The notes beneath the pieces were generated by a model. The model was not told where the DNA came from, did not search any database, and worked only from the letters and a program-made list of their open reading frames with translations. Both the position numbers and the translations under genes were made by a program. From a virus, in the UHGV virus genome UHGV-0096231: DNA of 40,810 nucleotides. One strand, written 5' to 3'. Below are positions 20,640 to 21,464 of the stretch, piece by piece. Position 1 is the first letter of the stretch. Each line of letters starts with the position of its first letter.

Positions 20640-21464
20640 TCAAAAATTAGGTGAGTAACGGACCGGGGACATAGCTCCTTTTTTTCTTAATTCATCTGGT
20701 ATTTTTTTTCCAAGATAAAGATTTGCTATTTCAGGTGAGGCTTCTCGACCTTCAAAACCATAGCGAGAACTTTGTGTTGCCTCAAAGTCCGGATCCTCGT
20801 CCCAGTATTTCATCGTAGGGAAATTTTCACGTGTTGATTTGAGCCATTTATCAGCAATGAAAACCCCTCGAACGATCCCCCTTACAGTAGCAAGAATGAC
20901 TTCTGCTTGGCTGGCGCGAGAGACATTAATGCGCCAGCTAAATCGAACAGCATCATAAAGCTCTGAATCCTTTGCACTTCTGTTAACGGAAATCATTAAT
21001 GCTTTATGATGAAATGTTATGGTTTCGGGTTGATATGTTGCTATCAACTCTTTGACATGCGCGGCGCCGAATTCATTGCTGCCAGCACCATTCATGATAT
21101 TCGTTAACCCAGGGTAGGCATCAATAAGTGCTGCTTCAACTTCGTATGCCGTCTTTTCATCAGTCATTCCGTGTCGATGGATGACATGGATAACCTCAAG
21201 TCCTGCTAACCTTATTTCTCTAATTTGCTTTAGCTTGTTGCTCAGTAACTCGTCATCATCAGTCGCTGCCACTTCACCACGCATATGGGCAAATACGCGG
21301 TTACCTTTGCCTTTCCCTACATAGAAGGTGCTTCCGTCCCTCGGATCAATCAATCGGTATACATACCAGCCAAGGTGTTCAATTACTCCAGAAGGAAACT
21401 CAGTAATATCCATTTTGCAATATCTATGAATTATTTGTGAGACGTATATTAATGAACATTGCAA
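20640..21464 (-). CDS. GIY-YIG motif nuclease-family protein, solitary
   Basis: 274 aa. N-terminal [27 protein letters not shown] fits the GIY-(10-11 aa)-YIG pattern with a downstream Arg. The C-terminal roughly 170 aa is unassigned. AT-rich cargo gene. Confidence 0.5.

Follow-up and report, generated by a model that had tools for sequence, protein, structure and literature searches.

What does a solitary GIY-YIG protein do between a prophage invertase gene and a restriction-modification (R-M) pair? The question is raised by a minus-strand open reading frame (ORF) at positions 20640-21464 of the window, that is, the entire stretch of 40,810 nucleotides of the UHGV virus genome UHGV-0096231 that was analyzed here. 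An earlier interpretation made from the letters and their ORFs (hereafter, the sequence-only reading) considered either a modification-dependent nuclease or an abortive-infection effector, with a possible sensor domain in the C-terminal part of the protein. Comparison of this protein with collections of defense systems, protein families and solved structures yields a more specific answer: the gene almost certainly encodes CMoRE (= PD-T4-3), a direct-defense nuclease that depends on 5-hydroxymethylcytosine (5hmC) or glucosyl-hydroxymethylcytosine (5ghmC).

Identity and domain architecture of the nuclease

The ORF is intact, as the sequence-only reading had it, but its start codon had to be corrected. 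Counted from the TTG start in the ORF listing of the window, the product would have 274 aa; the first in-frame ATG, at 21411-21413, gives a gene of 774 nt and a protein of 257 aa with the N-terminus MDITEF. This ATG, not the TTG at 21464, is most likely the true start because a 774-nt CDS is annotated in RefSeq on 100%-identical DNA (product name 'LEM-3-like GIY-YIG domain-containing protein'), because the PADLOC and PHROG profiles both begin aligning at residue 1, and because the published residue numbering (Y17, Y19, Y31) is compatible with no other start.

The family assignment comes from several sources. The PADLOC profile for PD-T4-3 (PDLC04031) matches residues 1-256 of the protein over profile positions 1-255 of 256 (E=4.4e-140), and PHROG 5356 matches over the full length (E=3.4e-143). 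A phmmer search against the PDB sequences aligned residues 1-257 without gaps to two crystallized proteins, CMoRE of Escherichia coli O157:H7 (9U75/9U8D, E=5e-171) and its counterpart from APEC O1 (9U7U/9U7Z, E=2e-151). The window protein is 98.1% identical to the O157:H7 protein, from which it differs at 5 of 257 residues (T51A, E55D, Q169K, N197H and S226P), and 85.6% identical to the APEC O1 protein, with 37 substitutions. Of the general family models, Pfam PF22945 (LEM-3_GIY-YIG) matches with E=2.1e-14, well beyond chance, the classical GIY-YIG model PF01541 falls under its cut-off (E=0.066), these two are the only Pfam matches at E<=1, with no DNA-binding module among them, and no NCBIfam model matches the protein.

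We found no sequence evidence that contradicts the CMoRE assignment, and the function is inferred by transfer from the 98%-identical O157:H7 protein, which has been characterized experimentally as a type IV modification-dependent endonuclease; the first option of the sequence-only reading is thereby borne out. None of the five substituted positions is a residue named as functional in the structural study (PMC12923530), and no functional difference from the O157:H7 allele is expected. The CMoRE of the window is not new: the defense phenotype, specificity, cleavage pattern, autoinhibition and crystal structures are already published. The system was first recovered from E. coli ECOR68 by functional selection (Vassallo et al. 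2022, PMC9519451; the main text mentions 'a GIY-YIG nuclease', and the name PD-T4-3 is absent from it) and was renamed CMoRE by Liu et al. (Nat Commun 2026, PMC12923530), so that the defense screen dates from 2022, and the mechanism and structures from 2025-2026.

The GIY-YIG signature beginning with YVYRL, from which the sequence-only reading started, was recovered at residues 17-43. The nuclease domain carries the GIYxY-YIG motif (Y17, Y19, Y31) together with R39, H43, E93 and N105. Beyond it extend about 130-145 aa, fewer than the roughly 170 aa allotted to the C-terminal region before; this part aligns to both 9U75 and 9U7U without gaps through residue 257. All of Y17, Y19, Y31, R39, R80, V92, L96 and Y127 are found in the window protein. 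In an alignment of the window protein with both crystallized proteins and two jumbo-phage homologues (39-46% identity), Y17, Y19, Y31, G33, K34, G35, R39, H43, E93, N105 and Y127 are invariant. Based on the GIY-YIG consensus, we regard R39, E93 and N105 as the probable catalytic residues; the loss of the catalytic Arg, Glu or Asn that would have spoken against a nuclease is not seen. Liu et al. describe the catalytic Arg and Glu as conserved and do not state the residue numbers in the text (PMC12923530), in which a search for R39, E91, E93, N104, N106 and D52 found none of these. The lid sequence is DDDE in the window and APEC O1 proteins and DDDD in the O157:H7 protein. Two of the five allele differences, T51 and E55, lie in or beside this autoinhibitory loop, and E55 is present also in the active APEC O1 protein. 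The coordinates of these and the other features are collected in Table 1.

Table 1. Features of the window around the CMoRE gene and in the downstream integrative element
Feature	Coordinates	Strand	Basis or remark
pinE-like serine invertase	20025..20579	+	Resolvase E=6.8e-51 and HTH_7; RefSeq pinE, 555 nt
Hairpin copy A, 13-bp stem	20579..20620	+	RNA fold -22.5 kcal/mol, z = -3.5; left boundary of the CMoRE cassette
CMoRE gene (assigned)	20640..21413	-	PADLOC PD-T4-3, PDB sequence matches, RefSeq 774-nt CDS
C-terminal modification-sensing domain (predicted), residues ~125-257 including Y127	20643..21041	-	Full-length alignment with 9U75; boundary approximate
[quoted passage not shown]
Acidic lid codons D52-D53-D54-E55	21249..21260	-	Alignment; autoinhibitory loop between helices alpha2 and alpha3
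Upstream region, presumably the native promoter, AT-rich	21414..21624	-	Extent of homology with loci lacking the R-M pair
Hairpin copy B, left arm only	21601..21624	+	Junction of the CMoRE cassette (on its left) and the R-M block (on its right)
Dcm/M.EcoRII-type C5 cytosine methyltransferase	21817..23250	+	PF00145 and PF18284; PADLOC MTase_II E=1e-229; RefSeq 1434 nt
EcoRII-type type II restriction endonuclease	23285..24493	-	EcoRII-N and EcoRII-C; PADLOC REase_II E=2.7e-233; RefSeq 1209 nt
ssrA (tmRNA) 3'-end remnant, 28 nt, two mismatches	24728..24755	-	Alignment with locus L002
Hairpin copy C, full hairpin	24748..24787	+	Directly after the ssrA 3'-end remnant
Tyrosine integrase	26945-28159		Second integrative element
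AntA-domain protein	29198-30031		Second integrative element
Ash-family protein	30200-31267		Second integrative element
Primase-helicase, zinc-ribbon + Toprim + DUF5906	32540-34891		Second integrative element

Published activity of CMoRE and the mechanism proposed for the window allele

The single gene with its native promoter reduces the plating of T2, T4 and T6 by about 5 orders of magnitude, and CMoRE alone, under this promoter, provides full defense in BL21 (PMC12923530). Cultures carrying it survive infection at MOI > 1, which makes this a direct defense rather than abortive infection, and the ECOR68 allele shows the same non-abortive behavior; in vivo, T4 DNA is depleted genome-wide, with the read depth of host DNA unchanged (PMC12923530). 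In the presence of Mg2+ or Mn2+, purified CMoRE binds and cuts DNA containing 5hmC or 5ghmC, a specificity shown for both the O157:H7 and the APEC O1 proteins, whereas DNA with ordinary cytosine or 5mC is neither bound nor cut; T4(hmC) remains sensitive to CMoRE, and T4(C) is fully resistant (PMC12923530). Two modified sites are needed for cleavage, which follows the pattern CN11/N9G and produces 3' overhangs of 2 nt (PMC12923530). From its native promoter, the APEC O1 allele confers weak defense, and the authors propose CMoRE as a 5hmC-specific reagent (PMC12923530). A homologue from Capnocytophaga, 48% identical, degrades T4 DNA and not T4-GT7 DNA in vitro, and at high enzyme concentration also cuts Mu DNA (PMC12366544). 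Deletion of PD-T4-3 from the clinical isolate NILS69 renders it sensitive to the T-even-like phages LF73_P1 and LF73_P3, the assignment of which to Tevenvirinae derives from the K-12 assay of the same study; this result shows that PD-T4-3 is active in its natural context.

In the crystal structures, the N-terminal GIY-YIG domain displays the 'GIYxY-YIG' motif formed by Y17, Y19 and Y31, and the active site is covered by a 15-residue acidic lid loop, which is present in most, although not all, members of the family (PMC12923530). The 4A mutant of the O157:H7 protein, in which four lid residues are replaced by alanine, cuts ordinary DNA and is toxic (PMC12923530). [quoted passage not shown]

The mechanism that we propose for the window allele was demonstrated for the 98%-identical O157:H7 protein and is applied here by identity. 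The protein would assemble into a tetramer, a dimer of dimers, in which the C-terminal domain would bind a flipped-out 5-hydroxymethyl- or glucosyl-hydroxymethyl-cytosine, holding the modified base on the domain edge, with the main chain of Y127 touching the 5-hydroxyl group. One dimer would read two modified cytosines about 21 bp apart, and the GIY-YIG domain, with Mg2+ or Mn2+, would cut between the two sites (CN11/N9G), producing the 2-nt 3' overhangs. The acidic lid, D52-E55, positioned over the active site, would exclude ordinary and 5mC-containing DNA; as a consequence, host DNA would be spared, including DNA carrying the C5 methylation introduced by the adjoining Dcm-type enzyme, and a cognate methyltransferase would be unnecessary. 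The genomes of T-even-type phages would be degraded directly and the cell would survive. The EcoRII R-M pair would act as an independent system cutting unmodified CCWGG DNA, and we infer that the two systems complement each other, one directed against phages with ordinary cytosine and the other against phages with hypermodified cytosine.

Prophage setting, hairpin element and cassette boundaries

The part of the window upstream of CMoRE encodes a prophage whose head is of the HK97 type and whose tail is contractile; its distal end resembles that of e14 and comprises a ymfQ-like gene, a gene for a tail fibre, genes for tail fibre assembly, and pinE. The neighbors described by the sequence-only reading were recovered: a serine invertase of the Pin type, a C5 methyltransferase of the Dcm/M.EcoRII type and a complete EcoRII endonuclease, all three supported by Pfam and the last two also by PADLOC. 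The methyltransferase is the partner of EcoRII, not of CMoRE, and most CMoRE loci have no adjoining methyltransferase; the absence of a cognate enzyme noted before thus holds. The structural genes have a GC content of 55%, compared with 43% for CMoRE and 36% for the intergenic spacer upstream of it (21414-21774), a drop expected of acquired cargo. The loci without the R-M pair (H19, H20, H22 and L003) match the window up to 21608-21624, and this extent defines the presumed promoter region of Table 1; a simple sigma-70 scan of 20500-21800 returned no minus-strand promoter, and no canonical terminator was found in the scan of the same range.

Among 5426 complete E. coli genomes, 838 carry CMoRE at >=95% identity. 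The gene is adjoined by pinE in 565 of these 838 genomes and by the methyltransferase of the Dcm/EcoRII pair in 243. At one locus (L002), the same CMoRE-R-M block ends a lambdoid prophage that has no pin gene, and abuts a real ssrA; the genes flanking CMoRE differ between this locus and L003, one of those lacking the R-M pair. The short remnant of the ssrA 3' end downstream of EcoRII in the window is, judging by its alignment with L002, a relic of the prophage attachment site. ARAGORN and Rfam detect no tmRNA in the window, the 28-nt remnant being too short, and the megablast hits labelled ssrA were set aside, their overlap being limited to the last 28 nt of that gene.

A hairpin element is repeated at the boundaries of the cassettes. 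The element core, CACGTMGTATGC, has three matches in the window, compared with 0.17 expected, all on the plus strand. Copy A sits between the convergent stop codons of pin and CMoRE, and copy B coincides with the end of the homology between the window and the CMoRE loci that have no R-M pair. In the lambdoid ssrA prophage (L002), the element follows the tail fibre assembly gene (tfa), and in L003, it follows pinE. Other prophages, too, have the sequence 3' of copy C at their ends, and, in a locus without the R-M pair, the upstream region of CMoRE is succeeded by a full hairpin and then by the same sequence that follows copy C. Because this locus runs straight into the full hairpin, the segment 21625-24758 looks like a block that was inserted into the hairpin element, with duplication of the left arm. 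The recurrence at prophage ends suggests exchange of cassettes by recombination at a conserved prophage-end element. A broader interpretation, which we put forward tentatively and consider rather doubtful at present, is that the hairpin is a recombination hotspot at which CMoRE alone, or CMoRE together with Dcm, EcoRII and the ssrA end, is swapped among unrelated prophages; such movement may occur between e14-like prophages, beside pin, and lambdoid prophages, beside tfa and at ssrA.

Several other features of the window are worth recording. A Pin-type invertible tail-fibre segment occupies 18134-19995, with the fibre and assembly gene on the plus strand and alternative copies on the minus strand (19286-19519 and 19522-19995); similar stretches, including LGEAAKRDVG, mark the likely junction of the constant and variable parts. 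Inverted-repeat searches of 17500-20700 and 18500-20100 produced no convincing Pin crossover sites, the likely junction near 18500 being at the edge of the second range. Between the ssrA relic and the integrase, a plus-strand ORF of 326 aa (25258-26238), hypothetical in RefSeq, has no match in Pfam, NCBIfam, PADLOC, PHROGs or the PDB sequences; its C-terminal half contains, as read by eye, a PD-(D/E)xK-like pattern (GKDIW...GIQAKKGK), and its single-sequence AlphaFold2 model has a mean pLDDT of 37.5, too low for use. The prophage is followed by a second integrative element (26945-34891; Table 1), which we judge to be a satellite-like gene set of the P4/CP4-57 type. At 36794-40260, two P22-type ejection (injectosome) proteins are encoded (Inj_translocase, E=8e-109, and a DNA transfer protein matching PHROG 770), an indication that the window ends, on the right, in a third segment of phage origin.

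Alternative functions and related systems

The linkage with the R-M pair could be taken to mean that CMoRE, Dcm and EcoRII form one functionally coupled three-gene system, in which, for example, the divergent 361-bp intergenic region might provide shared regulation, or protection against CMoRE might come from the methyltransferase. Indeed, the CMoRE-methyltransferase junction is 99-100% identical in the 243 genomes, CMoRE and the methyltransferase are divergently transcribed from an AT-rich spacer, and the entire segment running from CMoRE through the ssrA end moves as a unit, being 98.9% identical in an e14-like prophage and a lambdoid one. However, about 70% of the CMoRE loci have no R-M pair (838 vs 243 genomes), the 243 genomes may include many that are clonally related, and the R-M block seems to have entered the hairpin at the edge of the CMoRE cassette at a later time; moreover, the gene defends BL21 fully by itself, and CMoRE needs no protecting methylase because neither 5mC-containing nor unmodified DNA is bound or cut. 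Coupling therefore seems very unlikely to us. CMoRE is independent of the R-M pair, as indicated by the 838 genomes that carry the gene compared with the 243 in which it is linked to the methyltransferase, even though both are often inherited together. With no obligate partner gene apparent from its distribution, CMoRE qualifies as a single-component system; the obligate cognate methyltransferase of GIY-YIG type II enzymes of the Eco29kI/Hpy188I kind is missing.

A lone nuclease in a defense slot might also kill the infected cell as an abortive-infection or toxic effector, the second option of the sequence-only reading, and the toxicity of the 4A lid mutant of the O157:H7 protein betrays a latent capacity for this. 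Such a role is ruled out for the CMoRE family because the carriers grow normally at MOI > 1, the cultures in question carrying a protein 98% identical to that of the window; the depletion of T4 DNA with unchanged host read depth, the similar behavior of the ECOR68 allele, and the intact acidic lid of the window allele argue in the same direction, so that we assign this explanation a negligible probability. We consider it equally improbable that the gene is a homing endonuclease of the freestanding GIY-YIG kind or what decay has left of one; a homing-endonuclease remnant had been listed by the sequence-only reading as a possible refutation. GIY-YIG domains are typical of phage homing endonucleases, and 'putative homing nuclease' is the annotation given to the homologues of phages OBP and N1M2, but the window gene has neither the C-terminal DNA-binding modules nor the location in or beside a conserved target gene that characterize I-TevI-like homing enzymes: Pfam recognizes nothing in the protein apart from the GIY-YIG domain, the C-terminal domain corresponds to the 5hmC sensor of the crystal structures, and the gene resides in a cargo slot. 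Furthermore, unlike a remnant, the ORF is intact over its full length, and 838 genomes carry it with at least 95% conservation.

The assignment to CMoRE, which we prefer, can be placed among the known systems. The O157:H7 protein (9U75, 9U8D) has the same length and two-domain architecture, is likewise encoded by a single gene carried in a prophage, and shares the GIYxY-YIG motif, catalytic residues, acidic lid, V92/L96 tetramer interface and Y127, the two proteins differing by the five substitutions. The APEC O1 protein (9U7U, 9U7Z) is similar over the full length and has the same DDDE lid, but its substitutions fall mostly in the C-terminal domain. PvuRts1I, with which CMoRE was compared in PMC12923530, and the GmrSD/BrxU-type enzymes also cut hmC/ghmC-containing T-even DNA at a fixed distance from two modified cytosines, but have other nuclease folds and sensor domains. 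In structure, the nuclease domain is most similar to the N-terminal GIY-YIG domain of UvrC (1YCZ; PMC12923530), and the best Pfam match, the LEM-3/ANKLE1-type GIY-YIG family (PF22945), shares the catalytic fold; compared with both, CMoRE has an extra Tyr (GIYxY), the 15-residue acidic insertion and an unrelated C-terminal domain, and its role, in contrast to that of UvrC, is defense, not repair.

Full-length, two-domain homologues of CMoRE (38-46% identity) are encoded also by lytic jumbo phages of Serratia, Pectobacterium, Pantoea, Pseudomonas and Klebsiella, such as gp009 of Serratia phage Moabite (L004 3001-3765) and gp165 of Pseudomonas phage OBP (L005 2992-3753), under the annotation of homing nuclease or hypothetical protein. 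In these proteins, the catalytic residues and Y127 are conserved and the acidic autoinhibitory lid is absent; the lidless homologues could be weapons against competing hmC-containing phages rather than homing nucleases.

The closest parallel to the genomic position of CMoRE is found in the e14 element of K-12, where the gene order is ymfQ, stfP, tfaP, tfaE, stfE, pinE, mcrA, attachment site (L006). McrA (EcoKMcrA) occupies the slot between pinE and the attachment site (window 17546-24755 vs L006 2914-7413), and the two prophages have in common the order ymfQ, tail fibre gene, tail fibre assembly gene, pin, slot. The content of the slot differs, with McrA in e14 as opposed to CMoRE and the EcoRII R-M pair in the window, where the ssrA relic closes the slot. 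McrA is an HNH nuclease that targets 5mC and 5hmC in specific sequence contexts, in contrast to CMoRE, which uses a GIY-YIG domain and ignores 5mC. The two proteins are unrelated, with no common family in PADLOC or Pfam, but McrA resembles CMoRE in being a stand-alone type IV modification-dependent enzyme, according to its RefSeq product name. Thus, the interval from pin to the prophage end in e14-type prophages is a slot for defense cargo that accommodates differing type IV enzymes from strain to strain. Because CMoRE ignores 5mC, it can coexist with a neighboring Dcm-type methyltransferase, and this indifference lets it reside there without attacking the host DNA. If the hairpin does act as a recombination hotspot, the block that it bounds would be a portable unit restricting both unmodified and hypermodified cytosine DNA.
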